Notes under the pieces: model-generated
Databases searched by the model: none
What the model saw: only the letters and a program-made list of their open reading frames with translations
Told to the model about the DNA's origin: nothing
Shown: positions 4,044 through 58,009 of the stretch, piece by piece
How the letters are laid out: each line of letters starts with the position of its first letter
Position numbering within the stretch: the stretch's first letter is position 1
Source of the DNA: Vairimorpha necatrix
Lineage: Eukaryota
NCBI GenBank assembly: GCA_036630325.1
Contig: CP142729.1
Span: forward strand, 1,302,001-1,360,009
Reading direction: 5' to 3'
Length of the DNA stretch: 58,009 bases
Program-made: the position numbers and the translations under genes

Positions 4044-5154
4044 ACTGTATATTTTCTTAGTATTTCTCTACACATAGTTAATTTTTTTTATTTCTTCGAG
4101 ATTTAATCGAAAACAAAATTTAAACCTCTTTTCAAAGTAATTATGAAGAAATTAGCTTCGCATTCTTGTCAAAACAATGTCTATTAAATCTATATAAAAC
4201 AATAAAATTTATTTTTTTTCGATTCTTTTAATCACTTAAGAAAACTCTTGTAAAAAAATTAAATAATAATTTTCGTTTTAATATAAAAAATTTATACTTG
4301 TTAAGGCATCTTTAAAAAAAATACTGAAAAAAATCATAATCGCATTATTCGCTACGAAATGTTTTTTTTAAAAGGATTTCCAGAGCATTTATTTTAATTT
4401 TCTTAAATATTTTTTTAAGCTTAAGCCCGTTTTTTTGTTTTAGGATTTTGAAATTGCCCTTTTCGAACTTTATTTAAAAAAAGGTTGCCGACCCCTGAAG
4501 TAGATAGTAAAATAAAGAAATAAAAAATAAAAAAAAATGAAAATATAATTTGTAAATTTTGCGTTATTATGTTGTTTAATTATAACATTTTTTTTTTTTG
4601 AGATTTTCTCCTTCTCGTTCTGTTCGCTTCGAATTTCGAAAATCAGAAATATTTTTAAAAAATTGGTATTTATATATGTAAGGGGAGACTAAAGTAGAAA
4701 AGCTCCAGTTTTTTTATATTTTAAAACATTTTTTTTAATTCAAAAATAAAGTGTTACTGACAAAAGTTTTTATATGTTAAACAACTTTAATTAGCTTTGA
4801 GACCCCTCTTTTGGTTTTTTTAATGAAAATTTCATTTTTCTGGTAATTAGTCCGGTTCTGGTAAACATAAGGGCTCGCGATATTAAATAAATGAATCTGA
4901 GGCATTACACGGAGTTTGCGTTCTTCAATATCATCCCATGATGATTCTCCGTGATCAAGAGTTTTAAGTTTGTTTCTATGGTCTACGCAAGCGTTAGTTA
5001 TCCTCCCTTGGATACAGTTCTTCAGTGTGCTGCTTAGTATAATTTCTATGCCTTCTCGTTATTAGAGGGGGTAATATTACAAGAAAACATATAAAGGAAA
5101 ATAAATTTTAAAAATTCTATAGGTGTAAAATTATTTAAAAATAATGTCAGTTTA

Positions 5155-5432
5155 TGTGGTATTAACTCCACATTATTTTTATTTTATTTTTCCCTCTTAA
5201 TGAATTTTCTAGAATTTATTTATCTTTTATTTTACCCCACTAAAATATGAACAAAAGGAACGAGAATAGGAATGAAAAACGTGACGAACACGTGTATCCT
5301 CAGAGGAGGACTAGTAACGCCCACGGAGGCAACTATAATAAAAACATTACTAATAAACCTATTATTTCAACATCCAGGAGAAGCATCATAGAGTGCTACT
5401 TAAAGAATGGCCAACTTCCGGGTAATGCCTAA
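5155..5432 (+). mobile_element. Solo LTR (TGTGGTAT family), nested in the 4898-5444 LTR
   Basis: Starts TGTGGTATTAACTCCACA and ends GGTAATGCCTAA, with a perfect 5-bp TSD GTTTA (5150-5154, 5433-5437). Homologous to the paired LTRs at 43586 and 45276. Confidence 0.85.
5247..5432 (+). CDS. LTR-borne 61-aa micro-ORF (coding status uncertain)
   Basis: CCCC 9-12 nt before the ATG. The motif RRSIIECYLKNGQLPGN recurs in other LTR copies. The stop codon is the last 3 nt of the LTR. Confidence 0.3.
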   Translation: MNKRNENRNEKRDEHVYPQRRTSNAHGGNYNKNITNKPIISTSRRSIIECYLKNGQLPGNA

Positions 5433-5522
5433 GTTTATACCACAGAAACAAAATAAATTTTACATTAGATATCTGATATACATTAAAACAAATTTCATTA
5501 AGTAAAACTAAATAAATTTAAT

Positions 5523-13094: not shown

Positions 13095-13581
13095 TGTTGT
13101 ATTATTTAAAAATTTATATTTTCACCCCTTAATTTTATCATAATAAAGATCTTAAAAATAAAAAATTTAATTAGCGAAATTATAAAAAATCAAAATATAA
13201 ATCAAATTATATTTGTTATATTTGTATAATTTCTATCCCCCATTATGATAAATAAAGACATTAATTATAAATTAATCTTACTAAACCAGAGGAGCTACCT
13301 CTTTATAAATAGAGTTCTATAAAATTAATAGCTTTATTATTATATTTTCTATTGTAGCGCTGGCCATCTCATGTAGGAGCCTGATCCCTGGCTTTATCGC
13401 CCTTCCTTGGTCGTTGGTTCCAAGGGCATTGATCGTTCTTTTGTTTCATGATCCGGTGAAGATCAGGACAAAAAGAAATAAATATTTGATTTTTGGGATA
13501 AACCGGTCGAATGGTCTTTTTCCAAAAAATTGAAATTAATAAAATTATAAATAATTAATTTGTGGTATTTGTAATACCAAA
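13095..13581 (-). mobile_element. Divergent, longer solo LTR related to the TGTGGTAT family
   Basis: The minus strand begins T(T)TGGTATTACAAATACCACA (the family's terminal hairpin) and ends TAATACAACA. The internal ATG frame reads ...RKGDKARDQ...NFIELYL*RGSSSG, resembling ...KREDKAQGG...SIIECYLRNGQLPG. The TSD match is only partial. Confidence 0.5.
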
Positions 13582-13901
13582 AAACTCAATAAATTAATTT
13601 TTTTTGATCGATTATATCCATAGAAAGAACACAAAAAAGAATCTTCTATAAATAATATTATATACTAAAACTTGAGTAAAATTTGACAGTAAATAACATT
13701 AAATAGTTCAAAACATTTAAATTTGATCTTTACTTACTTTTTTCGAAAAGAAATGAAAAATATCGCCTTTTCATCTATTTTTTCAAAAAAGTAATTTATG
13801 ATTTTTTAAAAACACTTTATTCACCCCGAATTTAAACAAAAAAGGTTTTAATATCTTCTTAATTGTTAAATTTAAACTTTTTCAAAATTTTTATTAGCAG
13901 A

Positions 13902-23751: not shown

Positions 23752-26700
23752 CTAGATTTCTCTAGATCTGTTCTGGCTTACAAGCCTTTCCTTTTCTCGT
23801 ATAACGATATATCGTTGTACAATCATCTTGTCTAATAACTCTACTCTTACAAGTAGAGACTTCCTTTTATCAAAAGAAGCTTTGATGCCATTGATGTTAC
23901 CAATAATCATCTTAACTAGCTCCTCTTTTGTTTGAGTTGAAGATCTCAACTCAGATATTTTATTCTCATATAGAGATCTTGTGTTAGAGAGCGTCGGACA
24001 GTCTAACAAGAAGTGTTCAAGGTCTTCTCGTTCTCCCTCACATAACAAACAATGAGTCCTATAAAAAGGAGGGATTCTGTGGCATTAGCCAAAGCAGAAA
24101 ACCATCTGACTAAATTACACCAAAGCCTGGTGTAATTCCTGATCTGCCTGTTGTTTACTTTTGATAGTATGTGCTTAATCTGCGAGTCACAGATTCCATA
24201 CTTATCTGCTACTAGAGCACCTAAAGTGGTGTTGTAGGAACCCCTTGCCTTAAGTACCTCTAAAATCTTGTTCTTGTCTGTAATGTAGGCAATGCTTTCA
24301 TAATCGTTCCCGATATATCTCTTACACCAACGCCTAGTCCTCGAACTCCACGTTGTTTTCCTTTCCCTCGGAGGTTGGTTAATGAAATCCGAGATAATGG
24401 TTTTATTGTGTTTCCACTTCTTTAATGCCCTAAATCTACTTAGGGCCGCCTGTATGTGAACTCTATTCATACAGAGTTCGTCCATTATCCTATCTAATGG
24501 CACTATTTTTGTTCGAAATATCATTCGTATCGCTTTTCTTAGGATTCTATTGATCAAAACAGACCTTATACTAGACATCCCCCATAATTCACTTCCGTAC
24601 ATTAGTGAGGAAAATAGCATATTTTTTATTAATATACCTTTAAAAGCTATATTAATTCTTTATTTAGAAGCTTTGGTTTCAAGACTTTAAAGCTTTTCTG
24701 CCTCTATAGGCTCCATCTCTTACTAAGTGTTCTTCTAATGAAGATCTTTTTATAAGAACACCCAAATACCTGTATTAGGCGACTTCAACGATTTTTCCAA
24801 AGTCAGTCCTGATAGCGACATCTACAGACTCGGATCTATTATTGGCATCCCATACTAAGATACCACTTTTGTCACAGTTGATCTTCATACGATTCTCAAC
24901 TGCCCATCTGCTGACTTGACATACTTTGTGTTTCAAATCAGCAAGAGTATTGCCTAGAACACGATGTCATCTGAAAACATCAGTCCGGGCAGGCTTATAT
25001 TTGAGCGGGGAACGCTTAATCCTGTCATGCCGTCAAAAATATCATTTATGAATAGTTTGATAAGCGTAGGAGAACAGGGGCACCCCGTCTCACACCTTTT
25101 TTGTAGAGATATCCACTACTTGTGTCTCCTTTATACGGATTCTCATCTCAGTATTTCCATAGATATCTTTCAATGTGTTTATAAGATATCTTGGAATACT
25201 ATACCTTTCTAGCTTATTAAATAGTAGCTCATGGCTAACATTGTCGTAAGCTTTTTCAAAGTCAATAAAACATAGAAATGTTTGTTGACTTTGAAACCCT
25301 CTTCTTTTAACCACCTCAACAAGGTTGCAATCTGATTCATACATTCTTCTATTGCTCTAAATCCGGCTTGGAAAGGAGAAAGAATGTTCTTTTCTTCAAC
25401 AAACTGTGTAAGTCTGTCGTTTACTATTTTTAAGTAAATTTTGCTTATTGTGTTAATTAGCGCAATTCCTCTATAGTTGTTGAGATCTGACACATCTCCT
25501 TTTTTATGGAGGCAAATCATGTCAGCAACACTCCAGCTAACAGGAGGGCTGTCTCCTGTTAGTATTCTGTTGAACTCGTTCACAAGGAACAGAGGTAGCT
25601 TTTTATCTACTAAACTATGTTTAAGTAAAACCTTGTATAGCTCGGTTGGAATCTCATCCGGTCCAGCTGCCTTGTTGTTGCCACAGTTATTAGTGGCTTT
25701 TAATAATTCCTCCATAGTGATGTTCTCTGGATTATCCCTTTCGATATTTTTTTGATATACATTTTCAACGTCTGAAATTGAGTTAGCTAGATTAGCGTAA
25801 AAGTCATTGGTTATCTCTAACTTCTTTTTATGCTCGTTATGAGCCATGCCTGATACATCTTTCAAGCAAACATTGTCTAATCTAACAGTGACGTTAGAAG
25901 AACTTTAAAACCATTTCCAGAAGTCTCTGGATCTGTTACTTTTATAGAGCTCAATGCCCTCGAAGGCCCAAAGATTGGCTCGATCTTTCCGAACTTTTAT
26001 CTTTGTTGCCTTAATCTTATCCTTCAGTAACATGTACCTATGCACAGACGTTACGGACCTATTCGTTAGCATACACTTAGTAGCATATCTAAAACTTTTA
26101 AAGACATTTACGTGTCTCCATCTGATGGGCAGCCCTTTGAATGTCCCCACTTTACTGTATATCTTTGAGGATATACAAACGTCTTTTAAAAGTCTAGAGA
26201 GTTCATCGAGTGTGAATGTTTTTTCATTCAACTTTCTTGAAAGCTTAGCTCCCATTCCTGGATGCTCAAGTTTCTTCCTATTGTAGGCAAATGGCCGTTC
26301 TCTCACTGGAGAAGGAAGAAATATCATTCTCTTCAGCAATATATGATCACTTACCGCCCTCTTCGAGAAATTATTATTTTCTCGCTTTCCTGAATTAAGA
26401 CCCTAAAAATCGTAACAATACGTCTTTAAGAGACTTGTCCATCACTCAGGATTCTTGTTCCTGATAATCTGTTATAGTTTATTGCAGGGCTTAACCCTGC
26501 GATAGCAAGCTTCTTTTTTGGGAAGAATCACTAGTATTCATATCCCCCATCACTACAATCTCCTTATAGTTTCTTTTATCCCTCTCAATACTAAGAAGGT
26601 CAATTACATTACTTAGAGTTTCGGCCTTTAACTTTCTCTCTTGTGGAACGTAAACATTGATTATTAAGACCTTTGTCCATCCCGTACTAGTTTTGAATTC

Positions 26701-26975
26701 AACGACAGTTTGTAGAATATTGTCGTCATCCCCCTTTTTAGAACATCTTACTGCCCCGTCTTTTCTGACTAGAGTCATTAGACCTGGCCGATTCTTTCCT
26801 ATGGCTGGTGTCTCCACCAGCATATACTTTTCTAGTCTCGTAGAACCTAAGGATTTCTTCCAAGTTTCTTGAAGACACAAGACTGTTGGCTTTTCTACTT
26901 TAAGGAGGATTTCCAAGTCCTCCTTCTTTCCGTAGAAATGGTTGATGTTAAGACTATAGAGCCTGGCCTTCTCTA
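23752..26975 (-). pseudogene. LINE ORF2: APE endonuclease + reverse transcriptase + C-terminal CCHC
   Basis: APE: YSLNINHF, LCLQETW, INVYVP, VVMGDMN. RT: KAAGPDEIP, NNYRGIALINTISKIY, QAGFR, FIDFEKAYDNV, GCPCSP, MFSDDI. C-terminal: CMLC...EDLEHFLLDCP. Several frameshifts. Confidence 0.92.
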
Positions 26976-27451
26976 TGGACTTGCATCTTTTTTATTCTCC
27001 ACCCTATCACGAGTTGGAATTTCTTTTAATATTTCTAGGCCAAGTATATCCATGGCTTCAGAAATTTCTTTTTTTCTTGACCTTCTGACTACGCAGAAGG
27101 TGAAGTTAGCATCTTTTCTGCGATGCCTCTGGTATAGATAAGAGAGTCCGATAATTTCGTTACACTCTGTCTAACTGTTGTCGGAGTTCTTCTCCTTTGA
27201 TATGGTTAGCCATTGTTTTAATTAGACACAACCCCTTTTGAATGCTTGTTCTCAGCATTCTAGCTTTTACCATGATATAGACATGAGATTTAAATCTCAG
27301 TTTACATCCATATCTTTTATTAGTAAAGTTACTAATTTTTGGTGAATTATTGGGTAGACAATAATTTTTGATACAGCTAAGAAGCCGTATAACTTGTTTT
27401 TTATTAAAATATAAATTATTTAATAAAAATCTTTTAATAATAGCATTTTTA

Positions 27452-29029
27452 TCACTGTTCATTGTGATGTTTACTATCAACTTTCCTGTCTTTCCCGAGA
27501 TGTTCAAAGTTTAACTCGGATAGAAAGAACTCTTCATGGCTTACTGTAGGCTTGTAAGATAGACCGTTTTTTATAACTTTTATTGCCTTTTCGACAGGAA
27601 CATACTTCCTCCAATTTTGACGAAGATCGGAGAATATTTTCGTCAAAGCTGATCTGTTCCTAGAGATATAATTGCCCACTTCGTTTTCGGCAACTAATAC
27701 TCTTACATTTTCTGAAGCGTTCTCAAGAGCTTCTGCAGCTTGAAAGCAGATTTCATCTCTAATGAGGAAGATTCTGCCCTCGACTTCAATATCTTTTACT
27801 AGTGGAATGTTCTTTTTCTCTATGCCCATTAATTTGGCCCAGGTCTCCCTGATAATGTGTTCCCCTCGGGGGAAACCATGAGCGACCACAATTTTGTATT
27901 TGCAGTCTTTGGGCCTCTTTCCGTTTATTGCTAGGTCTATCAACTCTTCTCTGGATAGTTTATCTATCCAATTCGTTTGTTTCTTCCTCGTAATGTGAGA
28001 AGAAGGTGCCTTAGGTGAAGATGTTTTCTTCATCTTGGATTTGCGCTCAGTCATAGATTTCGACTTCGCACAACCTTTTATAGATGACAGTAACAAATCA
28101 TCTTTCAGTATTTTTTTACAAGTTTTAGAACTTAAAGCGGGTACTTTCAACTGTTTCGTATCACAGTTGAAGTTCTTTTTTATACCTTCTAGGAATGGGG
28201 CAAACCTATTGGCATCTTCTGTTTTTGAGGCATCAGCTTTTTTTTTACCTTTGGTTTCATATCACAATTTTTAAGAATGATTGTCCAGTCATTCTCCGTC
28301 TTTTCTGTTAGAAGAATATTTTTCTTCAACAATTTCCTGTTTCCTTTTACGGCAGCGGTTACCTTCCGTAAAAACACATTAATGGTATTGGATGATGGGA
28401 TCCTTTTACCCGTAACCTTTATTTGCTCTTTATCTTGAGCTTTATAGAACACCAAACTTCTCCTTTTCCTTTTTTTTTTATCAGTACGATCAGCTTTTTT
28501 TGTGATTGGTTCTTTACACTCTCCTTTTTTTGCAGTGAGAATCATGTCAATTCTCTGTTCTAATCTTTCATTTGAAGCTTTTAGGGCATCAATTTGTGTG
28601 TTGAGTTGGTTTCTCATTACGAAATCTCAATCTCATGCTGCTTCTTCAAGTTTTTAAGCTTGAATCTCTGTTCATTGAGCTCTTCACAGATGGCATCTAA
28701 GTACTCCCGATGAATACTTGTCACTCCATGTGAGCTTTTACAATAGGAAGCAAGGATAGCCATCAGCCCAGGTCTCCCACAGTACCTTTGGTTGGCATTT
28801 CTGCCTTCTTCTATCTTTATTTTGTTGAATAAAGTCTCTGTTCGTGACCAGAATTTTATCAATTCTTGGTCTGTGTGAATAGCAGCCTTGCGGAAGCTGC
28901 TAACTTCACATTCTGGTTTGTAGCCTTCCAATACTAGTGAATTAACACTTTCTTGTACTCCAGAGGTCGATAAGCCGGCCTCAATCTCGCAAGTTTCTTC
29001 CTCCTTTTTTTGCGTTTGGCGAACCCCAT
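27452..29029 (-). pseudogene. LINE ORF1 (Lys/Arg-rich, coiled-coil), fragmented
   Basis: Consecutive minus-strand ORFs 28617-28931, 28189-28617 and 27452-28150 lie upstream of ORF2. The probable start is ATG at 29029. Confidence 0.65.
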
Positions 29030-29034
29030 TTTTT

Positions 29035-29405
29035 TATTGTGTTTCAGAATCGCTAAATATACAGCATTGATCGTGTGATTCACAGTCCCGTGCTCCATCT
29101 CTTTGCTTGTCTAATGCGGCCACATATGTTACCCATTGATTAGTGATCATGATAGAAACGGTTTATACATTATCCTGTATTACCTCAAGGAAATAGCAGT
29201 ATTTCTACTAGTTACAGAAACAAGCAAGGCGCAAGCTGATTCAACATCAAATGCTTTTAAAATAATATTTTCTTTGTTTTCTATGTAAATTTCGTTTCAT
29301 CACTAAAAAGCTCATCTGTTTCAACAAACATTGTTTTTGCCAATTTTTCCATTTTTGAAAGGGGGTTTTCAAAATTTCAAAGCGGGGTTTAAACGGCCTT
29401 ATACC
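29035..29405 (-). mobile_element. Truncated Merlin derivative (one TIR), cut by the LINE 5' end
   Basis: The reverse complement is colinear with 1490-1840 (e.g. shared GTTTCTGTAACTAGTAGAAATA and CTAATCAATGGGTA). TIR-like GGTATAAGGCCGTTTAAACCCC at 29405. Confidence 0.8.
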
Positions 29406-29612
29406 GATTTTTCTTTTTTTTATACCCCACATAAAATATTAATGTGAAGAACAACAACGCTTATAACTACGGGAGGTCACAAAGAGACTTAACCTATCTT
29501 AAGAGGATTGAGTATTACCCACCGGGGGGAAATTTTTTATAATGAAACTAATTTAATTGCAGGAGAAGTATTTTATGATCTATGCTAATAAATTTTTATC
29601 GCGGGTTTACAT
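29406..29612 (+). mobile_element. Partial, decayed LTR of the TGTGGTAT family (3' half)
   Basis: TTTTATACCCCAC motif, CCCCACCGGGGGG hairpin and AGGAGAAGTATT occur in the same order as in other copies. The 5' half is replaced by the Merlin element. Confidence 0.5.
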
Positions 29613-29823
29613 ATGTTTTAATTTGTCTTAAGTTTATTTTTGTCATTCTTTTGATTGTAAAGATATGCAATTCAACTATTAATGATGTTTAAGACATGCA
29701 GGACCAGTAAAAATTCTATGTTATTTTGTTAATCATAAAGAAAAAATGAAATATTTTGATGTAAATTGCTAGAGAATAAAAATATAATCAAATTAAACGG
29801 AAAGTTTTAGCTAGAAAATATTT

Positions 29824-31759: not shown

Positions 31760-32925
31760 TGTGGTATTAATTACCACATTATTTGTATTTGTTTATTTTT
31801 CCCTCCAAATTAATTTTCTAGAAAATATTTTGCTATAAATATTTTCTTTGGAGGTGGGGTACTTTAGAACCCCCCTTTTGAAGCGCTTCGATTTTTTTTT
31901 CGAACCCCAAAATTGAAGTGCAAAAAAAAAGAGGAGCAGGAAGGGGACAAAAATTACTAAGCACTTATGACATTAAAAACAATAAATAAATATATATTTA
32001 TGTACACAATTATATTTTAATACAAGTTTTTACAATTATATAAACCAATAAGCATTTTTTGCCCTTCTGATTTTTTAGAATTGGGAACCCAAATGCTCCT
32101 CTCTGAGGGTGTTCACTTTATAATTTTGAACCCCAAAAACGAAGTGCAAAATAAAGGAGAAGCAATCATTAGTACATAAATTACTTGCATCTTCAAACAG
32201 TAAAAATACCAAATAAAAGTATATTTGTATACGAAATTTAATTTAAAAAAAAGAATATAACCATAAAACTATATAATTCTAAATAAAATAACATATTTAA
32301 ATTAAAATTTTTGATTTAACAATCTGTATAGATCGTTGAACATTTATTTTTATTTTCTTATATAAATAATATTTATAATTTTAATTGTTGGTTTGTTTTT
32401 AAAGTAGATTTTCTTCAAAAATCTACTTTCATAATAAACCAACAAAAAAAAAAAATTGAAAAAATAAGAAGGGCGAAAAAAGACACAATACTTCAAATGA
32501 TTATTATAACTAAATCTAAAATTAAATTTTGTATAAAAGCATATATTTATTTGTTATTTTTAATGTCATAAGTGATAAGAAATTTTTGTCCTTTTCTTGT
32601 TCCTCTTTTTTTTTGCACTTCAATTTTGGGGTTCGAAAAAAAAATTGAAGCGCTTCAAAGGGGGGGGGGTCTAAAGTATCCTTCACCCATTTTCTTTTTA
32701 CTTTACCCCAATTTTAGGAAGATGAGAAGCACTGAAAACTCATACAGATACAGAGACATCGGGAAGGCCCTTCATGCCTTACCCCCTCACATGAGGAACG
32801 GAACTAGCCCACAGTTGAAAGATAATAAATACAATTTTAATAAAAATATTCTTAATAATGTTGCAAGGAGGAGTATCATCGAAAGGTACTTACAAACCGG
32901 CCTCCTCCCTGGTGGTAACACCACA
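31760..32925 (+). mobile_element. Solo LTR (TGTGGTAT family) interrupted by a foldback element
   Basis: Starts TGTGGTATTAATTACCACA and ends GGTAACACCACA, with a perfect TSD ACAAT (31755-31759, 32926-32930). A micro-ORF from ATG 32722 contains RRSIIERYLQTGLLPGGN. Confidence 0.85.
31850..32688. mobile_element. Mutator-like / foldback MITE with ~160-bp TIRs
   Basis: Long imperfect TIRs (31850-~32010 and ~32530-32688) and a perfect 9-bp TSD ATTTTCTTT (31841-31849, 32689-32697). A 9-bp TSD with long TIRs is typical of Mutator-like elements. Confidence 0.85.
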
Positions 32926-40600: not shown

Positions 40601-43585
40601 TATTATATCATTTTTAAAATAGTAATACTGTCATTATTATTTGTTTGTTCCGTAAATCCGAACCAAATCTTCTATCGTATAACAAAACACAAGTTTAATG
40701 TATGATAATATTTAAGAATCTCGTGTTATTAAAGTATTACTGATTCTTTAATAGAGATGTATTCTTTTAATAAATATCATTGAAGATAAAATCTAGACCT
40801 TAAGTAAATATGAAAATTACCTTATAAAACCTAGATGAAATACGCTTAATACGTACAATTTATGTCGAATTAATAAAATCAACTTGTATTAAGTTTAGAA
40901 TATAATGTTAAGCCGCATATTTAATGTATCTGTGTAAATTCAAAAATGGGATAAATTCTTACGTAAAAAATAAATTATATAAAATATAATAATTTGAAGT
41001 ATTTATATTTTTTAATTATTATTTGAAAATGACAAGAAACGTATCGACAATATAAATATAATACAAGGATCAAAATGATACAAATCTAACACACTCTTTA
41101 AAAATCAAAAACAACTTGCATTATAGACATAAAACTATGTATGTAGAAATATTTAAAAAACCAATTTGAATATAAAACTTGCATCAGCAATATATATAGA
41201 GTAGATAAAAAAATATTATGTTCAAAACTAAGTAACAAATCATTTTCTGATATAATTTTATAATAAATAGTGTAATATAAGGAAAATTCTCATATAGAGT
41301 ATTAATAAACTGAAACTGAATGTTCTATATATAAATTAGAGTTGGGTTTTTCATAAAAAATGATAAGTAATATTGTATAAAGTAGCTTTTAATAACTATT
41401 TTTAAATTATATTTTTGTAGTGGACACTGAATATGTAGAACATTTTGAAAATATTTATGAGATATAAAATGATATCCAGTCCTTTATCTTTAAGATTAAC
41501 GTCGCTAGAAAAAACATTGTAACCAAGCTTTTTCCATAATGACTATTAAGATTTACTTTTTTTTGAAAAAACTTTTTTGTTCCCCGCACGAAGAAGTTTA
41601 TTTGGAAATCATTAAAAAATTTTATATAACAATGAGCTTTAAAAAATACAAAAATAGAACTTTTTTATTAATAAACAACATCACCTACAACTAGAGATAA
41701 AATTGATGTTTACATCGACCATGTTTAAAAAAAAGGCAAGTTTTTTTTAAAAAAAAACATTACTGATGCAGTGTTTAATGGAATTTGTAAATGGTGAATT
41801 AACGACTAGAAGAATTTATCTGGAAGCATCTTCTTTTCTTTTATACGATTCTATATCTCCATTTTCCAAAAATCGAATAATGGTGGTCAAAGAAGTTCGT
41901 AGAAAGCAGGATCGAATTTTAGTAATGTTAGAAGTCGCGTAAAAGATTCATGTAATGATAGGTGTTATTCGTGTTAGTAAATTATGTACATAGTTTTGCA
42001 ATTTAGAAATTATTTTAATCTTAGTTTCTTATCAGCAGTGAATCTTGACGATGTAATATAAAGATAGATAAAAACATATGTTCTGAAACGAAAAAATTGT
42101 ATAATATGTACTTTCTGTAATTTGTATAAAAATTCAAATCAGTATTTATCAATAAACTCTATACACGAAACGTATGAGAATAAATTCATTGTTCATAAAA
42201 TTCTAAATAATGGTTTTTCTTATCTTACATGGAAAAAAATAAAAATTTGGAAGAGAGTAATATTATGAGAAAAGTAGAGAATGTCTGAAAAATATCTGAT
42301 GAATGATCATTAACATTTAAGAAAAATTTATAACAATCGAAATGCGAAAGTATTAGATAAGAAAATTAGCATATAATAATATTTGAAAGTATGTGCATAC
42401 GGTAATTGATTGAAATTACACATCTGTCCTATAAATTATATATTGACACTGATTCAGACAAAGCTTCTATATCAGCTTTGAAGGTCTTTATTAGTTATCT
42501 TACAATTCTAGATAATATATTAGTAAAATATAGATACCAAATTATCATATAAACTGTTTACAGTTATAATTAAGATGAATCAGTAGAACAAAATATATCA
42601 AATGTAAAGTTATAAATAATTAGAACATTATATAAATACCAAATTAAAGACTGTCATTCTTTTATAATGAATAATTTTAATGGGTTTAATAAATACAAAT
42701 ATCATAAACACGTATATATGATATAAAATTCTTAATAAATTAGAATGATTATTATATATATATATATCAGTAAAAATCTAGAATTTAGTATAAAAATATA
42801 TTTAGAAAAAACATGTTGGTCATTTAACATAAGATGTCTATAAATTTTGTTGTTGGTAATGAATTTTGCTTTTTTAGAGATAAAGATAATTAAAACAACG
42901 AATTATAATACAATAAATAATAATGAAGGAATTAATCATCAGATCAAGGCTTATTGAATTCTGATATTTTTTTTCGATGCTAGGTTTATATTAATCTTGT
43001 CTATTATATGTAATGAAACTAATCTTTTTGTAATATTTAAAATTATATAATTTGGGATCTGTAATTATCTTCATTTGAGGATAAAAACTTTAAAACATAA
43101 TATGGTTAAACAAAAATGATATATTAAAATTTAAATAAGATATTTATAGAGATAATTTAGAAGATATATATACATTTGAATTAAAATATAATATAATATT
43201 AATATTGTTGTGTTATATAATATAAAAAATAGGTTAAACTATCAAATACTCTAAGAAAGTAGAAGCGTACATCAAGATGATTAACAGAGAAGACAAACAA
43301 AAACATTCCAATATACTACAAAAGAGGTGTGAAGGTTCCGATTTAAAAAAGACTAAGTGCCGATAAGCTGCTTACAAACAGGAGACGCAAACGCGGAACC
43401 TATTCAGAATATACTATAATATAAAACACCATTAGCATTTTCCGTTATAATTCATTTTTATTAGAAAAATAATAGTAATTATGTTGTATATATTTGTAAA
43501 GATTGTTTTTATATATATATTATAACAATGGTATTTATTATGTTATTTTCTGAAATAAACTATTTTTTTATATTAAATATGAATT

Positions 43586-45561
43586 TGTGGTATTATTTAC
43601 CACATTATTATATTTTCCCTCAAAATGAATTGTCTAAAATTTATTTTTCTATAAATATTTTCTTTTTATTTTTACCCCCACCAAAATATGTCAAGAAGAA
43701 CAGAGGAGTCTAGAAATCATCAGTATCAATCACTGCATCCCCAGAAGAGGGAAGACAAAGCCCAAGGAGGCAGATTTTATACTACAAATTTAATTATAAT
43801 AAAACTTTATTACCCGGGAGAAGCATTATAGAATGCTATCTGAGGAACGCCCAACTCCCGGGTAATACCTCAATGAGCTGATTAGTATTAGAAAAAAGTA
43901 ATAATACTGAGAAACAAAATGATGATGAAGCATATACCACATTTGATAAAACCATAGAAGGAACTACAATAGTGGTTAAAGAAAAAATTGAAAAATGTAA
44001 AACGAGACTGCACCATAAAGCATCTCGAGCTGTTTGAAGAGCTAGGAACGGCCAATAAATGGACTGATGAGCAGATGGGACTCATCTACCATTCTTTGAT
44101 TGAAGATTCTAAGGTGAAAGATAAGCTAAATAAGAAAATCTTTAAAAAACAAAAAAAAAGAACTACTAGAATTTAGATACCCAAAAAATGATGTAGCTTT
44201 ATTATTAACAGAGATGGAAACTGTAAAACAGGTAAATTATAGAAGTATAGCAGATTACTATGAGAAAATAGAGTCGATGATTGAAATATACGGACTATCT
44301 ATGAACCAATCGAAAAAGGAATCTGATGTTAGATTGAAACAGATTTTTGAGAGAGGATTAGGCAGATCAACTGCCATTGAAGTTTTAAAATCAGGAATGA
44401 AAAACAAGGGAATGGACGAGCTATTAAAATATTCACAAGATCTGGAAGAAATGATTATTTTACAGGCGAAACTGAAAGGGACACGAATATCTCAATTTAT
44501 ATCTAAGAAAGAGAATTATGAAAGACCTGAAGAAACAGGAAGATACTTTAAAAGTGATAAGTGGTGCTCTATACATCGAGCAAGATCACATGATACACGA
44601 GATTGTCGTCTACAAAAACCAAAAGCCAACGATAGAGAAATAAAAAAAGAAGGAAAATCGTTAATGATAAAAAAAATTCCTAACGATGAATTGGATGAAA
44701 AAATAAAAAAACCGACTGCCTATTAATTCAGAAACAAAAAGAAAATAAAATCATCAATAAACAGAAATGTATAAATGAAAGAATAAATAATATAGATAAT
44801 TGTATTAAAAGGAATTTGAATAAAAAATAGACAATCTTCTAGCTAAAGTCTTAACTAATATAGTTGACTTTGTGAAAAGGACAGGGAATACGATACCATC
44901 AGATGATATATATTCAAAAATATTAAAATAAATAACAAAGGAAGAAGCAAGCCTCCTGATAAAATTAAAGATAACCATCAACAGGTAAAAGATTTGGCAA
45001 CATCTAAATATGATAGTTATCAGAATAAAAAAAAAATCTTGGAACTTTCAGAAAACATTGCCTCAAAAATAAAATGCAGCAGATGCAATTTAGCATATGT
45101 AGATATGGAGTAAAGGGCGAATTTGAGAAGCTCAAATGTGATAAGTTAAACTCATACCTTGATTTGAGGTTTAGAATATCCAACCCAGCTATTACTAGGA
45201 AACGGCGAAAAGAACTATTTGATGATTTCGGAGGAATCCGTATTCTAATTTGCTGATTTTTTGCAGGAGGTAGTATGTGGTATTATTTGCCACATTATTA
45301 TATTTTCCCTCCAAATGAATTTTTAGAATTTATTTTTCTATAAATATTTTCTTTTTATTTTTACCCCCACCAAAATATGTCAATAAGAACAGAGGAGTCT
45401 AGAAATAAGCAGTATCAATCAATGCATCCTTAGAAGAGGAAAGATAAAGCCCAAGGAGGCAGATTTAATAATACAACTTGCATTATAATAAAACTTTAAT
45501 ACCCGGGAGAAGCATTATAGAATGCTATCTGAGGAATGGCCAACTCCCGGGTAATACCTAA
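43586..45561 (+). mobile_element. Internally deleted LTR retrotransposon (Ty3/Gypsy-type gag, most of pol lost) with TGTGGTAT-family LTRs
   Basis: Direct repeats 43586-43872 (TGTGG...CCTCA) and 45276-45561, a purine-rich GCAGGAGGTAG just before the 3' LTR, and internal gag remnants. The flanks GAATT/AAATA are only a partial TSD match. Confidence 0.85.
43873..44726 (+). pseudogene. gag pseudogene
   Basis: An ATG lies immediately after the LTR. Fragments HLELFEELGTANKWTDEQ and KQIFERGLG, and a Cx2Hx4Hx4C knuckle WCSIHRARSHDTRDC. Confidence 0.7.
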
Positions 45562-48500
45562 AAATAAACATAAAAACAAGAAATAAATATATGACAAATT
45601 AATAATTTTTTTTTCTTTAGGGAGTATCTACACATCTTATATCCGGCATGAAGCCTGATCCGAAGTTGAAGTGATGAGTCTAAATTTACATATTGATTTA
45701 TATTATTTGTTTGTTTTGCTGCTCATCGGAATTGTAGGTCAGGGGTAAATTCCGTTTAAATAGTCAATCAGATTAACTGTCAAACTCTTTGAGATGTAAT
45801 CAAACAAACATGAAACCGAAGTTCTACTGAATTAGTAGTACTTCATGTGACATGCACTTGTCTTACTTTTAGTTTGTGAATGTCAAACATGTCTAATGTT
45901 TATTTACAATACTCTTAGACGTTTGACAGTACCAATAATCATTGTATAATTATAAACAAGATTCGTCAGTGCAGGTCTGCAGCCTCACACATCTGAAGAA
46001 AATATTAATATTGTTATTTTGAAAATTATTTCTTGCACAATTTAGTACATTTTTTTAGAGGTTGCCAACGTATGTATCTGTATAATTAATATTTTAAGAA
46101 ATTTAGATTTATTTGTCTTTTCATATGAGTACGTAAGTATATAATTTGCTGTATATAAAATAATTATGAAACGCATTATGTGCAGAATCGACATAAAAAT
46201 AAAAAATTGTAGTAAAGTTAAACATATTAATTCGGCTTTGGACAAATACGTTAATTAAACGCAATATTTACTTCTTTTTGCAAGGTAAAAACATATTTTT
46301 CAAAACAAGTAAATTAGATTCTTTCAAAAAGAAATTAAAACACAATCATTGAGTGATTTAATTACAAGAAATGTCTGACACTATATAACAATCATTTAAG
46401 ACATATAATTTAGTCTAACAATATATTTGTTGAAAGAATTAGGACATATTTATATACAAGAAATAAGATTATAAATCTATTTAAAATAATTTATGTATAT
46501 GCATTAAAGCATTTAAATTAATGTTAAATATACCAAAACTTGATAAACTAAATACAAAGGTTTTATGGAAGTGTGTAATAACGATTACATCATAAGGACA
46601 GTTTTCAAAGTTTACTCTGTCAAATATTCACCAACAACGTTCCAACACATCAATAATACAACAAAAAATGAAAAATTTACAATATGTGTTTATCCATGCA
46701 AAATAATTAACCTTTAACTTACGTGGCTAAAAAATGATTACAATAAAAATAAAATTTAAAAAAAAAGTTTGTGTATGAAGGGCAAGGAATATCTATGAAG
46801 CAAGTACATAATCATAAAGTTATTAATAGTAAAATATTTTTAGTCTTCAAAGTTTTATCTATGAAGAACAGAGAAATAAAGAAAAAATAAGAAGGAGCAT
46901 ATTGGTTATAAGAAAAAATATTTTTAAAACGAACTCTACAATCTATCTAAATTTACAACGTAGGTAATAACAAGATAATTTAAATTTGATCTTTCGCTTT
47001 TTCATTTGGTATAAATACGAAAGCAAACAAATAAAATTTCTTTTACGATCAATATAGCACTGTTTTAGAAGTGATACAAATAATATTCATTTATTATAAC
47101 TAGATAGTAAAGGTATTATAAAGAAAAGATATACATATGATTCATACATATTGCTTTGCAAGATAAATACATAAGAATTCAAAATAAAGATATACGATCA
47201 AGATATTATATGAAATATAATTTTCTTTTATATATAAAACCTACGCCAAGATAAACAAAAATAAATCATAATATTGCATATAGTATTATTTAGGTACACT
47301 TAACACATGCAATGAAGTTTTTTTAATTATCTAGAACATATCAGACGATTTTTTAAATAAAAATTATACTAAAAAATCAACTATATTATATTTATATATG
47401 ACCAATATGTACACGTTATTAAGTATAATAATTACTAATGGTAAAAAAACGAAAACAAATATTATATAAAAATTTTAAACGAATTAAGATTGACCTCGTA
47501 TATTACATTTTTTTGGTTTATAGAATTCTAAAGAAGTTTCAATTATAAAACATTGTAGACTTTTGAAATCGAAGTTGGTAAAAAACAATTGTCACAAATA
47601 TTAATTTGTTGTTTACAATCATATTGACCACACAAAATTAGAAATTATGACCAAAAAATTCTAAAAAGTAAAATCATTAATGTTTTTATCATATTTATAA
47701 AAATATATTATTTTATTATTAATTGAAATAAAAAAATAAAACAATTCAAATATCTATCGGTTAAATATTTAAGAATTGCTCTTTTGTTATATATAATACC
47801 TTCTAAATCCGTAAAGTATAATATTTTTATATAATATTTAGATTAAAATTTACGTATGAAGATCGAAATATTATAAAAAAGTTCATTTACGAAAGAAAAA
47901 AAAATTTAAAATTCAATCAACAATTATCGTAAAATTATATAATCATTAGAAAATCATTTATTTAATTATAATTAGAAGAATTGATGAAAATTATTTAAAT
48001 TAACAATATAAAATAAAACCTATTCATTTTAAAATCGTTCAGCAACAGTAAAAAGAATTTTACTTAGAAACGACATTTATGTAATTGATTTTAAAAATCC
48101 TAGGGAACCACTACTTAAATATATTTTCCATATTTTTATATAATAAGAAATAATAAGTAAATTTTCAATTATGAATAATTAAATAAAACAATCGCACATA
48201 CAATTTAATATAAGGTTGCTGTAAAATGGGTTCGAGATTTTGAAAAAGGCGTCGCATATCTCAAAAAAATAAAACAAAAATATTGAGGGGAGTAGAATAG
48301 AAATGCATATAAATCCAATACATTTAATAACAATAAAAAAATTAATTATGAAATGCTATATTTATTAAAAAATCTTTTATGCCATAGTTACACGCTAACG
48401 GAATATAATTTTCAATATTTATATATTTAAGCAGAAAATAATTTAAAGTAAGGTAAAGAGTAATAACATAATATAAAATGATTAACACTTGCTTAATTTA

Positions 48501-51891: not shown

Positions 51892-54800
51892 TGTTAAAGT
51901 TGAACCTCCTATTAAATAAATGTATAACATGGCAAACACAAAAGACGAAAGGGTAACAAGTGAGACCTGTGTTTAGGAGATAGAAAATTACTAAAAGAAG
52001 CTCAGAGAGTAGAAGCAATCATCGGAATGCAGAAAGATGTAAAAGATGTGACAACGAAGCAGTCGATAAAACAAGTAAGTTCTGAACTTTAGGATTTTAT
52101 TATTGATAAAAATTTGATCAGTATGATTAATTGGAATGATATTATTGATGAAATTGATAAATTAGTTGTTGAAAAGAAAGAGAATTAGAACAAGGAAAAA
52201 TTAAGGAGTAGAGAACCAGAAGATATGGTAGAGGTTATGAAAGAAAAATTAAAAAAGAGATTAAAGAATAACTGACTAGGACTGTAGCAGTGCCGGGAAG
52301 AAACTTTCAATATCAAAGACGAGAAGAAAACCATTGTTTTATATGTGGAAGAATTATACATATAGCTAGAGATTGTATGGAGCGTAAAGGAAGACATGAA
52401 GAGAATAATGAAAATAAAAGGGAAAAATATTTTGGCATTCGTGATAATAGAAAATTGAAAATATTAAAAGGAAATGATTTTAAATTGAGACTACCAGTGG
52501 AGGTAGAAAGATTAACTCAAGAAACAGTTTTTATGTAAAAAAAACGAAACAAGATAAAAGAAGAAAAAATATTATTAAATATGAAGAATTGGAAGGAAAA
52601 TTTCCTGAGGCATTAGGAAAAGACGAAGAGTAAATAAAATATTTAACAGGGATAAAATGTTCTTTTAAAACAAAACAATGAGTGAAAGTAGTAAAAAAGT
52701 AAAAAATATTTCTTATAATAATCGAGAAAAGTATATTAATTTATTAAAGTAGAGGTATTATCAGAAGGACAAAGAGCGAATGGATAAGCCCAATTAGGCC
52801 CATAGAATTACCAAATGGTGAAGTACAATTGAGAAGCAATTTGATGGCTTATAATGAACTGGAATAAAAAGATCCGTATGAATTGCCATTGATTAGAGAT
52901 ATTATTGGGGAACGCAAGATTCTAAAGTATTTATGGTTATAGACCTAAAGGAAGGATTCTATCATATAGAAATTGACAGACTTACAAACATAAGACAGCT
53001 TTTAAGATAAATGATAGAGTTTACGAACGGAATGGCCTGGTAAAGGGATTTAAAAATGCTTCCCATATTATGCAAAGAGTGATATACGGAGTTTTAGATA
53101 AGTTTAGAGGCAAGAGTGTTAAGGTGTACATGTATGATATTATTATTCATGCAAGAGATAGTAAAATACAAGAAAATTCTTTAAAACAAGTAATTCGAAA
53201 ATTTAACGAATGTGGATTTTAAGAAACTTAAAAGATACAATATAAAGAAGAAGTATAACTACTTTGAGTATCAATTAACGGAGAAGACATTACACCTAAC
53301 AAAATTAAAAAGAATAAGACATTAAAATACAAAAGGCATAACAACATAAAAGATCTTAGAAGATTTTTGGAGTGGCAGGCTGGTTTAGAGATTTTATTCC
53401 CAATTATGCTTATCGGACAGCACGTCTTACAGATGCACTAAAAAAGATAGCAAATAGAAATGATCAAAGATATGGAAAGAGCTTTTATGGATATCAAAGA
53501 GGGTTTTCAGGATTCAAAAAATCAAAAATAGTAGATAGAAAAAAAATATTTAGTATAAGAACGGATGCATGCGATACGGGCATTAAAGTCATACTTCTGC
53601 AAGAAAACAAGAAAGATAGGTGGATTCCAATACAATGGGCATCAAAAATGCTAACACCAACAGATAAAAAGTTTACGATTAGTAAAAAAGAGATGTCGGC
53701 AGCGTTTTTTGGAATAAATAAATTCGAGTCATATTTGAGGGAAGAAAATTTTAATAAATGACAAATCATAAAGAAATGGCCGAGATTAGAACAAACCGTT
53801 TTTCAATAATTATAATTTAGAGATGGATAGAATATATACAATAGTTCGATTTTACTATTAAATATGTAAAGTACAACTAATGACGTATGTAGATGCTCTT
53901 AGTAGATAATTTGAAAATAACGAAGTAATTGAAAAAGGCGAATAAGAGAAACGGATCAAAAACAAATGAAAGGGAAAGAAAAAAAGCGCATGGTTAAAAG
54001 TGAAAGCAAAAACTTATGGAAGTTCTCAACAGGGGAAATTAATAAATACAACACAAAGAAATAAGTGAGAACAGAAATTCGTAGAGTTCCTGAGAAATTA
54101 AATCATCGAGAAGTGAAAAAAACTTATTATAAGGAAAAACAAAGATTGTACTGGCCAAGTATTGGACCAGATAACCACAACGCTAAAAAATTGTGAAGTA
54201 TGAGTTTTAATAACAGAAAAACGACCGGAGGTTGAAATTTTGTAACAATATTTAAGAAATTAGAAAAAGTAGTTTAGACGTAATGGATATTGCAGAAAAG
54301 GAAAGATACGTGCTATGCAGGGACTGACTACTTTTCTAAAAGAGTATGGGGCGCAAAGATGGAAAATGAGAGAAGTGATGTTATTACGAAAATTTTAGAA
54401 AAAATTGTTTAAGGAAGATGGATACACAGATGAATATTTTACGGATAACGGTAAGGAATTTGTCAGTAATAAGTTTGTAACTTGGTGTAAAGAAAACGAA
54501 ATTATGCAATGGAGAGTATGTTTAGAAGCTCATAGGAGTAATGGAAGAATAGAACGATGTATTTGAACAATAAGGGAATCGATGATCCATGAAAAAGAAG
54601 GAAACCCAGAGGAAAAACTAGAACAAGCTGTAAGAACTAATAATTCTTACACAGAGCGATTAATTCAACACAATTGAAGCATGGAAAGAACAAGGAAAAT
54701 AAGTCTTTATTGAAAACAATAAAAAGGGTGTGTATTCAAGTAATTTTAAATTAAGGCATAGAGAAAAATTTGAAGTAGATCAGGCTGTGAGAATTGCAAT

Positions 54801-55042: not shown

Positions 55043-55203
55043 TATAATCATTAATCTGAAAAAAAATAATTGAATTATAAAGATAGTTAGATAAATTTTA
55101 TCTAAAAATTTCCATTTTTTATTTATTTTAGTTACATATTGATGTAACTGAATTTTTTTCAAACAAAAGATTCAGGAAGGTTTGAGGGCTAAAAGCTTAC
55201 GTG

Positions 55204-58009
55204 TTAGGTAGGTTAGGTAGGGTAGGAAGATAGGGTAGGTTAGGTAGGTAGGTAGGTAGGTTAGGTAGGTAGGTTAGGTTAGGTAGGTTAGGTTAGGTAG
55301 GTTAGGTAGGTAGGTAGGTAGGTTAAGGTAGGTGGTGGTAGGTAGGTTAGGTAGGTTAGGTAGGTTAGGTTAGGTAGGTAGGTTAGGTAGGTTAGGTAGG
55401 TTAGGTAGGTTAGGTAGGTTAGGTTAGGTAGGTTAGGTAGGTTAGGTAGGTAGGTAGGTTAGGTAGGGTAGGTAGGAGGTAGGTTAGGTAGGTAGGTAGG
55501 TTTAGGTAGGTTAGGTTAGGTTAGGTAGGTTAGGTAGTAGGTTAGGTAGGTTAGGTAGGTTAGGTAGGTAGGTTAGGTAGGTAGGTTAGGTAGGTAGGTT
55601 AGGTAGGTAGGTTAGGTAGGTAGGTAGGTTAGGTAGGTAGGTTAGGTAGGTTAGGTAGGTTAGGTAGGTTAGGTTAGGTAGGTTAGTAGGTTAGGTTAGG
55701 TAGTTAGGTAGGTTAGGTAGGTAGGTAGGTAGGTTAGGTAGGTTAGGTAGGTTAGGTAGGTAGGTAGGGTAGGTAGGTAGGTTAGGTAGGTAGGTAGGTA
55801 GGTAGGTTAGGTAGGTTAGGTAGGTAGGTAGGTTAGGTTAGGTAGGTTAGGTAGGTTAGGTAGGTAGGTTAGGTAGGTAGGTAGGTAGGTAGGTTAGGTT
55901 AGGTAGGTTAGGTAGGTTAGGTAGGTAGGTAGGTTAGGTAGGTTAGGTAGGTTAGGTAGGTTAGGTAGGTAGGTTAGGTAGGTAGGTTAGGTAGGTAGGT
56001 AGGTTAGGTAGGTAGGTAGGTAGGTTAGGTTAGGTTAGGTTAGGTAGGTTAGGTAGGTTAGGTAGGTTAGGTAGGTTAGGTAGGTTAGGTAGGTTAGGTA
56101 GGTTAGGTAGGTTAGGTAGGTTAGGTAGGTTAGGTAGGTTAGGTAGGTAGGTTAGGTTAGGTAGGTAGGTAGGTTAGGTAGGTTAGGTAGGTTAGGTAGG
56201 TAGGTTAGGTTAGGTTAGGTTAGGTAGGTAGGTAGGTTAGGTTAGGTAGGTTAGGTAGGTAGGTTAGGTAGGTAGGTTAGGTAGGTAGGTTAGGTAGGTT
56301 AGGTAGGTAGGTAGGTAGGTTAGGTAGGTAGGTAGGTAGGTAGGTAGGTTAGGTAGGTTAGGTAGGTTAGGTAGGTAGGTAGGTTAGGTAGGTTAGGTAG
56401 GTAGGTAGGTAGGTTAGGTAGGTAGGTAGGTAGGTAGGTAGGTTAGGTAGGTTAGGTAGGTAGGTTAGGTAGGTTAGGTAGGTTAGGTTAGGTAGGTTAG
56501 GTTAGGTTAGGTTAGGTAGGTAGGTAGGTAGGTAGGTTAGGTAGGTAGGTTAGGTTAGGTAGGTTAGGTAGGTTAGGTAGGTTAGGTTAGGTTAGGTAGG
56601 TTAGGTAGGTTAGGTAGGTAGGTAGGTAGGTAGGTTAGGTAGGTAGGTTAGGTAGGTAGGTAGGTTAGGTAGGTTAGGTAGGTTAGGTAGGTAGGTAGGT
56701 AGGTTAGGTAGGTAGGTTAGGTAGGTTAGGTTAGGTAGGTAGGTAGGTAGGTTAGGTTAGGTAGGTAGGTTAGGTAGGTTAGGTTAGGTAGGTTAGGTAG
56801 GTTAGGTAGGTTAGGTAGGTTAGGTAGGTAGGTAGGTAGGTAGGTTAGGTAGGTAGGTAGGTAGGTTAGGTAGGTAGGTTAGGTAGGTAGGTTAGGTTAG
56901 GTAGGTTAGGTAGGTAGGTTAGGTAGGTAGGTAGGTTAGGTAGGTAGGTAGGTTAGGTTAGGTAGGTTAGGTTAGGTAGGTAGGTAGGTTAGGTTAGGTT
57001 AGGTTAGGTAGGTTAGGTAGGTAGGTTAGGTTAGGTAGGTTAGGTAGGTAGGTAGGTAGGTTAGGTAGGTTAGGTAGGTTAGGTAGGTTAGGTTAGGTAG
57101 GTTAGGTAGGTAGGTAGGTTAGGTAGGTTAGGTAGGTTAGGTAGGTAGGTAGGTAGGTAGGTTAGGTAGGTTAGGTAGGTTAGGTAGGTTAGGTAGGTAG
57201 GTAGGTTAGGTAGGTTAGGTAGGTTAGGTAGGTTAGGTTAGGTAGGTAGGTTAGGTTAGGTAGGTTAGGTTAGGTAGGTAGGTTAGGTAGGTTAGGTAGG
57301 TAGGTAGGTTAGGTAGGTTAGGTAGGTTAGGTTAGGTAGGTTAGGTAGGTAGGTTAGGTAGGTTAGGTAGGTAGGTAGGTTAGGTAGGTAGGTTAGGTAG
57401 GTTAGGTTAGGTAGTAGGTTAGGTTAGGTAGGTTAGGTAGGTTAGGTAGGTAGGTAGGTTAGGTAGGTTAGGTTAGGTAGGTAGGTAGGTTAGGTAGGTA
57501 GGTTAGGTAGGTAGGTTAGGTTAGGTAGGTAGGTAGGTTAGGTAGGTTAGGTAGGTTAGGTAGGTTAGGTAGGTAGGTTAGGTAGGTAGGTTAGGTAGGT
57601 AGGTTAGGTAGGTTAGGTAGGTAGGTTAGGTTAGGTGGTGTAGGTTAGGTTAGGTAGGTTAGGTAGGTAGGTAGGTAGGTTAGGTGGTGGTTAGGTAGGT
57701 AGGTTAGGTAGGTAGGTTAAGGTAGGTTAGGTTAGGTAGGTAGGTGGTTAGGTTAGGTTAGGTAGGGTAGGTTAGGTAGGTAGGTTAGGTAGGTTAGGTA
57801 GGTTAGGTAGGTAGGTTAGGTTAGGTTAGGTTAGGTTAGGTAGGGTGGGGTAGGTTAGGTAGGTAGGTTAGGTAGGTTAGGTTTAGGTAGGGTAGGTAGG
57901 TTAGGTTAGGTAGGGTAGGTAGTAGGTTAGTGTAGGTAGGTAGGGTAGGTAGGTTAGGGTAGGTTAGGTAGGTAGGTAGGTTAGGTAGGTTAGGTAGGTA
58001 GGTTAGGTA
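55204..58009 (+). repeat. Telomeric array of mixed TTAGG and TAGG repeats
   Basis: The G-rich strand runs 5'->3' to the end of the sequence over ~2.8 kb of T(1-2)AGG units. Variant units cluster at the proximal and distal ends. Confidence 0.95.

Follow-up and report, generated by a model that had tools for sequence, protein, structure and literature searches.

A translated U5 end with a possible superimposed stem-loop in a long terminal repeat family of Vairimorpha necatrix

The window analysed here is a stretch of 58,009 nucleotides from Vairimorpha necatrix (GenBank assembly GCA_036630325.1, contig CP142729.1, positions 1,302,001 to 1,360,009 of the forward strand). It is subtelomeric DNA, with a GC content of 19–46% per 2-kb window (mostly 20–37%) and a mixed TTAGG/TAGG telomere repeat of ~2.8 kb that forms its end (55190–58009). 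It carries a family of long terminal repeats (LTRs) of the form TGTGG...CCTCA, and the subject of this work is the module at the U5 end of these repeats, which in the 5′ LTR of a 1.98-kb element lies at 43808–43867 on the forward strand. An initial annotation had read this module as a functional structured RNA. Our analysis reveals that it is the in-frame 5′ part of gag and not a free-standing non-coding RNA, while the implied constraint at the nucleic-acid level is likely.

Eight copies of the family (A to H) are present in the window and stand for seven insertions, as A and B are the 5′ and 3′ LTRs of one element and were counted as one. Copies A–E are the five seen in the initial annotation; F, G, and H were added by a peptide-motif scan combined with nhmmer. 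The copies are direct repeats with the termini TGTGG...CC(T/A)(C/A)A, and 5-bp target-site duplications (TSDs) are exact for C (GTTTA) and E (ACAAT), match at 4/5 positions for D, and are not preserved for A–B. With TG...CA ends and short TSDs the repeats are true LTRs, as first proposed. Copy A (43586–43872, +; nhmmer E 2e-82) opens the gag-only, pol-less element and is 92% identical to copy B (45276–45561, +), with loose ends of related copies in sequencing-run contigs beginning at 43584–43586 in support of its start. The two LTRs enclose 1.4 kb that holds a decayed gag and lacks pol, and a polypurine-tract-like GCAGGAGGTAGTA, read by eye, lies directly 5′ of B (45263–45275, +). The module of B occupies 45497–45556 and has an outer stem of 10 bp.

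The remaining copies differ in their state of preservation. Solo LTR C (5155–5432, +; TSD GTTTA at 5150–5154 and 5433–5437) retains an intact 62-aa open reading frame (ORF) at 5247–5432 and sits 7 nt into the start of D, an older solo LTR on the opposite strand with a decayed ORF (4898–5154, with its first 7 nt at 5438–5444, −; TSD GTTTC/GATTC), so that nested LTRs fill 4898–5444. A candidate LTR end, ATACCACA just 3′ of C, was rejected as it is the split start of D, and a 93-codon open frame through D (4777–5058, −) has neither a start codon nor any similarity and is attributed to chance. Solo LTR E (31760–32925, +; TSD ACAAT; ORF from 32722) is split by a foldback insertion of ~830 bp (about 31850–32682), and its module at 32860–32925 encodes ARRSIIERYLQTGLLPGGNTT. 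Copy F (13270–13582, −, boundaries approximate) is highly diverged (...NFIELYL*RGSSSG; nhmmer E 8.2), G (29402–29640, +) is 5′-truncated and decayed (RRSIL*...), and H (1–331, −) extends beyond the window. Run unfiltered, a covariance model of five copies found no further good copies, with E values of 1.9 for the H hairpin and 3.9 for F. Of five sequencing runs listed, three contain part of the window, and none of the listed holders is an RNA run. In a comparison with contigs of the runs X1, X2, X4, and X5, many related copies were seen in X1 (90 pieces) and X2 (364 pieces); none of the differences listed for these contigs falls within 43808–43872, and they provide no usable covariation. The module pattern had 0 matches in a viral contig collection, and three metagenome-contig loci that matched it are unrelated GC-richer sequence and were set aside as chance matches.

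Each LTR contains the motif TTTT(A)CCCC with an ATG within about 10–15 nt, and the CCCC motif that had been noted upstream of the module is present in all copies. In copy A the motif, which we read as microsporidian-type, is TTTTACCCCC and is followed by an ATG at 43688–43690 (43670–43690, +). A CCCC-type motif in this arrangement with a start codon is described as a microsporidian promoter type (PMC2803860, PMC11592040). In C the ORF from this ATG (62 aa) runs as far as the LTR end, and in E it passes beyond. The module frame of A reads PGRSIIECYLRNAQLPGNTSMS, followed by TGA (43879–43881), its sole stop, and then by 51 open codons into the element. Position 43880 is G in the window and C in all other contigs (X1 4/4, X2 5/5), and C at this position removes the stop and leaves the frame open. 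From the ATG to the Ser codon there are 134 nt in A and B vs 135 in C, so the ATG is out of frame with the module in the former two; this frameshift is common to A and B, and the element was therefore already non-coding at its last transposition.

The peptide encoded by the module, (L)LPGRSIIECYLRNAQLPGN in A, RRSIIECYLKNGQLPGNA in C, RRSIIERYLQTGLLPGGNT in E, and LSIIECFLATGKIHGKH in H, follows the conserved pattern RRSIIECYL..G.LPG. In a comparison over 16 codons, the proportions of synonymous (pS) and nonsynonymous (pN) differences were 0.68 and 0.08 for A–C, 0.58 and 0.05 for B–C, and 0.81 and 0.15 for C–E. The module peptide is thus under strong purifying selection (pN 0.05–0.15 vs pS 0.58–0.81 among A, B, C, and E). 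The gag coding region runs from U5 across the LTR end (43813–44726, +) and is broken by frameshifts, with an intact piece at 44214–44726 that contains the knuckle C-x2-H-x4-H-x4-C (KWCSIHRARSHDTRDC). By tblastn, residues 11–75, 76–120, and 122–289 of a Nosema granulosis Gag-Pol fragment (P0004) align onto 43807–44633, the first of these segments covering 43807–44001 with an alignment unbroken across the LTR end; BLASTP gave 38% identity over 64 aa (E 9e-9), and the module peptide is homologous to the Gag-Pol N-terminus in other Ty3/gypsy elements of microsporidia. A HMMER library search with gag found 66 relatives. Relatives of the gag protein are on record for Vairimorpha necatrix, Nosema granulosis, V. 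apis, Dictyocoela muelleri, and Anncaliia algerae. A homologue search with the 170-aa gag piece, restricted to longer proteins, found none. In 12 of the 30 HMMER relatives whose sequence extends 86 aa or more to the N-terminal side of the gag core, [ILVMFY][ILVMF][ED].Y[LFWYV] occurs near the N-terminus (residues 6–37, one at residue 123), and in nine of these 12 [LM][NS]S follows at most 30 aa past the motif, where the present element has MSS. The arrangement that marks a microsporidian Gag N-terminal motif clade, [ILV][ILV]E.Y[LF]..G followed by a gag core with a Cys/His knuckle, is found here. Pol is absent from the window element; the full-length gag relative P0023 has protease at 321–410, reverse transcriptase (RT) at 536–692, RNase H at 759–881, and integrase at 946–1117, which is the Ty3/gypsy order.

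Protein coding is accordingly the main explanation for the conservation of the module and for part of its complementarity. Selection on the Gag N-terminus makes the module the best-conserved part of the LTR, and its conserved codons bring complementarity with them: AGC..TGC, AGG-AG against CT-CCN, and the palindromic CCN-GGN. Two upstream hairpins that had been counted as recurring structure do not stand as such, being located in conserved P-Q-R-R and A-x-G-G codons, with CCN and AGG complementary by nature.

As proposed, the module lies at the U5 end, beside the expected primer site. A candidate poly(A) signal, AATAAA, lies just upstream of it in A (43798–43803, +) and is found 10–35 nt upstream also in B, C, E, and F. 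Its position suggests an R/U5 border in the 5′ half of the module; transcripts polyadenylated there would terminate within the module, and the complete module would be present only at the RNA 5′ end. Directly past the 5′ LTR comes ATGAGCTGATT, without TGG, in agreement with the initial annotation, and no tRNA 3′-end primer site (TGG...) was found near the 5′ LTR of A, where the sequence from 43873 onward is ATGAGCTGATTAGTATTAG. At the primer-site position itself (43873–43882, +), the window reads ATGAGCTGAT, with G43880 giving the TGA, while the consensus of the other contigs, with C at 43880, is a 10-nt palindrome, ATGAGCTCAT, in an open frame.

The initial annotation had proposed a Tf1-type self-priming element or, alternatively, an uncharacterised ribozyme, which solo LTRs might express as a ~180-nt RNA. 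The lack of a TGG site and the U5 stem adjoining the primer position speak for this reading. Self-priming is described in fungal Ty3/gypsy elements (PMC7175516, PMC4600332), among them Tj1 (PMC4600332) and Tf1, whose primer site is the complement of the opening 11 nt of the RNA (PMC7175516). The present family resembles Tf1 and Tj1 as a fungal-lineage Ty3/gypsy element without a tRNA 3′-end primer site, but the complementarity between RNA start and primer site is absent here. Nowhere in the LTR is there a complement of 9 nt or more to the post-LTR sequence; the longest, from a comparison of 43868–43900 with the whole LTR, is 8 nt, A/T-rich, and away from the RNA start, and the LTR holds no match to the sequence directly after it. 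Rfam covariance models gave 0 matches at the gathering threshold in the 58 kb and none in the LTRs at E up to 5. A MIR166 match at 45638–45700 (21.5 bits vs a gathering score of 60) was rejected as chance. Retrozymes, plant elements described as carrying hammerhead ribozymes in their LTRs, are similarly non-autonomous and have structured RNA in the LTR, but no hammerhead or other Rfam ribozyme was found here and the module is coding. Translated as it is, the module is very improbable as a Tf1-type self-priming element or a ribozyme.

In copia the primer is an internal site of the initiator tRNA, as is known for Ty1/copia-group elements. The primer site of the present family likewise does not start with TGG, and the post-LTR ATGAG, which starts at the first base past the LTR, could pair with the anticodon loop of tRNA-Met (C32–U36). 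An internal tRNA fragment, cut after the anticodon, would then act as primer; the following CTCAT could pair with the 5′ strand of the anticodon stem, and the U5 stem-loop would take the role of the U5 inverted repeat (U5-IR). The consensus of the other copies preserves the full palindrome given above, and the nine relatives with [LM][NS]S at this place have an NTG codon followed by a codon able to begin with A-purine, a combination that would suit pairing to an anticodon together with U33 and a pyrimidine at 32. Priming from inside a tRNA also has a precedent in copia, for which it is described as established (PMC3592414), although in the Ty1/copia group. Against this, a five-base match at a fixed place is weak, codon constraint acts on these very bases, and there are 0 tRNA genes in the 58-kb window. 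We know of no precedent for priming from a tRNA 3′ end at position 36. We consider priming by a cleaved anticodon loop unlikely in this element. A wider proposal, which we also hold to be improbable, is that a whole clade of microsporidian Ty3/gypsy elements fuses the gag start and the primer site in one translated stretch: the primer would be a tRNA cleaved within its anticodon loop, the initial post-LTR codon (ATG here, Leu in relatives) would be cognate to the primer anticodon, and the U5 stem-loop would be a loading structure perfected in coding-freed, non-autonomous derivatives.

The module of copy A folds into an outer stem (43808–43820/43855–43867) that encloses an inner hairpin (43822–43827/43832–43837) and a junction (43838–43854). 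The 13-bp outer stem is perfect, the inner hairpin has 6 bp, and both dominate the ensemble with pair probabilities of 0.95–0.98, just as they had been described. The stems quoted for D, CACGGAG/CTCCGTG and ATCATC-ATGG-GATGAT, are likewise present and perfect (4953–4947/4914–4908 and 4945–4940/4935–4930; pair probability 0.97–0.99). The statement that every well-preserved LTR has both stems proved too strong: the outer stem is formed in four of eight copies and the inner hairpin, at homologous positions, in five of eight (A, B, C, D, and H). Copy C, described as keeping both stems, does have the inner hairpin but does not form the outer stem, and E has the outer stem, while its inner hairpin, also claimed, requires a 3′ arm displaced by one codon and reaches a probability of only 0.35. 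Copies F and G have neither. Measured against dinucleotide shuffles, the folds of A (z −5.2) and B (−4.4) are far better and that of E is marginal (−2.8); against synonymous recodings, all three are more stable (A −5.06, B −4.26, E −2.55).

Compensatory change was polarised with C and E as outgroups and H read by eye. Four double compensatory changes had been reported for D, which is an over-count, the solid cases being the pairs 24:37 (D) and 16:61 (D and E). The status of pair 17:60 hinges on the placement of a 1-nt gap in D, and the pair closing the hairpin, 28:33, was ancestrally a C·A mismatch that was fixed by C>T in A and by A>G in D. One compensatory change in D does create a stop codon in the ORF frame, as noted earlier: the D ORF has decayed, including TGC>TGA as half of a compensated pair, yet it retains 6 + 7 perfect Watson–Crick pairs. 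We simulated neutral decay from an A-like or a C-like ancestor to the divergence of D (33–34%), and at least 6 inner and at least 7 outer Watson–Crick pairs were kept in 0.01–0.03% of 20,000 descendants (P about 1e-4 to 3e-4). Unaided, RNAalifold predicts the same two-stem architecture. In the alignment, pairing cells amount to 77.9% vs 73.7% in shuffles (reached by 8/500), the covariation score is 0.232 vs 0.164 (8/500), and pairs with double changes number 4 vs 2.2 (46/500).

Codon usage supplies a further line of evidence. GC at third codon positions (GC3) in the module is 10/19 in A, 10/18 in C, and 12/19 in E, compared with 52/225 in the remainder of gag (binomial P 0.005, 0.003, and 0.0002), and right past the LTR end, in the same frame, it is 9/54; upstream LTR-encoded codons likewise have raised GC3. 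As a separate observation on composition, LTR-encoded gag (43688–43872, 5247–5432, 32722–32925) has a GC3 of 0.42–0.63, compared with 0.17–0.25 in the rest of gag and 0.16–0.24 in host-like ORFs, a sharp step at the LTR end inside one reading frame. The raised GC3, the perfect stems in two non-coding lineages, and the neutral-decay simulation together make some constraint on the module at the nucleic-acid level, beyond coding, likely, and its most likely form is a U5-IR-like stem adjoining an unconventional primer site.

A rival account holds that the module is coding only and that its stems arose incidentally, from complementary codons and by chance in a small patch of higher GC. In A/B and D the stems would then owe their perfection to quasi-palindrome correction by template switching in replication and not to selection on RNA. 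That pN is far under pS fits such an account, as do stems that are missing or displaced in C, E, F, G, and H and perfect stems exactly in the coding-released copies, where palindrome correction would be unopposed. Selection on codons alone sits less well with GC3 that is enriched in LTR-encoded codons and drops sharply past the LTR end, with the rare codons AGC and TGC retained in A, B, C, and H amid variation at adjacent synonymous sites, and with an outer stem at the same place in each of A, D, and E. Moreover, A/B moved after loss of the frame, yet its stem was kept and extended: A, already non-coding at its last transposition, carries the longest perfect stem. We regard a module shaped by coding alone as possible but doubtful, and the palindrome-correction account of its perfect stems as equally doubtful.

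On balance we lean slightly towards a module that is the U5-encoded beginning of gag of an uncharacterised microsporidian Ty3/gypsy family, overlaid by a weaker, U5-IR-like structural constraint. Several observations weigh against the overlay. The covariation tests had an alignment of five sequences only, with only seven independent insertions available, and the RNAalifold covariation term is unfavourable (+0.96); support from covariation is weak, and a new covarying RNA is not established. The outer stem does not form in C, F, G, and H, and the inner hairpin is missing in two to three of eight copies. C folds no better than shuffles (z +0.19) or recodings (z −1.06) and H no better than controls (z +0.68), these two being the copies with the best-kept coding motif outside A/B; for D the energy does not surpass that of shuffles (z −0.09). 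Between lineages, pS in the module is 0.55–0.99, so that its synonymous sites are close to saturated and show no sign of suppressed change, and the GC3 elevation spans the whole LTR-encoded ORF and not the stems alone. The simulation thresholds were picked after D had been seen, and template switching in an imperfect inverted repeat would give the same perfect stems in coding-freed copies. The internal region is available in one copy only, so the reading of the primer site draws on one locus together with the sequencing-run contigs. We put a real cis-acting structure in the module at roughly an even chance, and a superimposed U5-IR-like structure is plausible but unproven.

In the favoured scheme, with its transcription start, poly(A) site, and RNA function inferred, transcription would start just past the TTTTACCCC motif in the LTR, and translation would begin at the ATG a few bases downstream; the predicted RNA start is 43680–43687 and the predicted poly(A) site about 43815–43825. 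The reading frame would pass through R, U5, the LTR end, and the primer-site position into the gag body, and the N-terminal motif that the module encodes, (R)RSIIE.YL..G.LPG, is common to Nosema, Vairimorpha, and Dictyocoela Gag-Pol proteins. The second, weaker layer would consist of the inner hairpin and, in some lineages, of the outer stem around it, with a 3′ arm that stops 5 nt short of the LTR end. This stem could be a cis-acting counterpart of the U5-IR stem-loop known from avian retroviruses and Tf1, either presenting the adjacent unconventional primer site or serving packaging or dimerisation, and would have been perfected in lineages freed from coding, namely the pol-less A/B element and D.

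Parallels for both layers exist in better-known elements. The gag of Ty1 starts inside the 5′ LTR. In the present family the gag frame likewise starts in R/U5 and reads through the primer-site position; Ty1 differs in being a Ty1/copia element with a tRNA-iMet 3′-end primer site, whereas the relatives here have the Ty3/gypsy order and TGG is absent. The Ty1 primer site and cis-acting RNA structures are described within the GAG coding sequence, with short palindromes near the 5′ end as candidate dimerisation sites (PMC3592414). Comparable palindromes (CCCGGG, TGGCCA, and GAGCTC) occur in and after the module. CCCGGG is found twice in A and B, TGGCCA in the B and C junction (AATGGCCAAC, 43846–43853 region), and GAGCTC after the LTR; these hexamers resemble the PAL sites discussed for Ty1 dimerisation and are not conserved in the A junction or in D. 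A U5-IR stem-loop is described for avian retroviruses and Tf1 (PMC3601003, PMC4600332). The module shares with it a U5 inverted repeat that encloses a loop or hairpin and whose 3′ arm lies a few bases before the primer site, such a stem near the primer position being present in A, B, D, and E and absent in C, F, G, and H; the known examples lie in untranslated leaders, whereas the stem of the module is translated and absent from half of the copies.

Two smaller features of the element were recorded. The LTR start (43586–43604, and in other copies too) forms a small inverted repeat, TGTGGTA-N5-TACCACA. Within gag, 62 nt past the 5′ LTR (43934–43941), ATACCACA occurs once more and forms the complement of the initial 8 nt of U3; judged on one copy, this pairing could permit 5′–3′ RNA cyclisation like that of Ty1 CYC5/CYC3.

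Elsewhere in the window, the foldback element in E (31850–32682), which resembles a miniature inverted-repeat transposable element, has 213-nt arms that are 78% complementary and G/C-run termini. Within an 844-aa ORF (5523–8057, −) that has no significant Pfam family, 108-bp tandem repeats occupy 5630–6431, with seven copies at 61–82% identity to the reference copy and a further pair. A run of ORFs at 24000–29400 (−) has an RVT_1 match at E 2.2e-6, just under the Pfam cut-off, and pieces of it recur at 1087–1750; P0023 has no match there, which makes a retroelement of another kind probable. At 53360–53740, about 1.5 kb from the telomere, a stop-rich stretch contains a Ty3/gypsy pol remnant (RT thumb/RNase H) that matches P0023 with 27% identity (E 1.5e-9). 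In the telomere array (55190–58009), TTAGG and TAGG units are interspersed, spaced 9 and 13 from start to start; one Nosema species is described as having a composite TAGG/TTAGG telomere (PMC11592040).

In the literature consulted, where journal coverage was incomplete, nothing turned up on priming or on the 5′-end layout of microsporidian LTR elements. In this family and, by protein homology, in a Nosema–Vairimorpha–Dictyocoela clade, gag starts inside the LTR. At the present locus the primer-site position is translated and lacks a match to a tRNA 3′ end. For annotation, LTR-embedded ORFs of 60–90 aa and "orphan" N-terminal Gag peptides are prone to being mis-called or omitted, and the layout described here is of value in recognising them. 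The locus is also a concrete example on which the overlap of constraints on protein and RNA can be tested.

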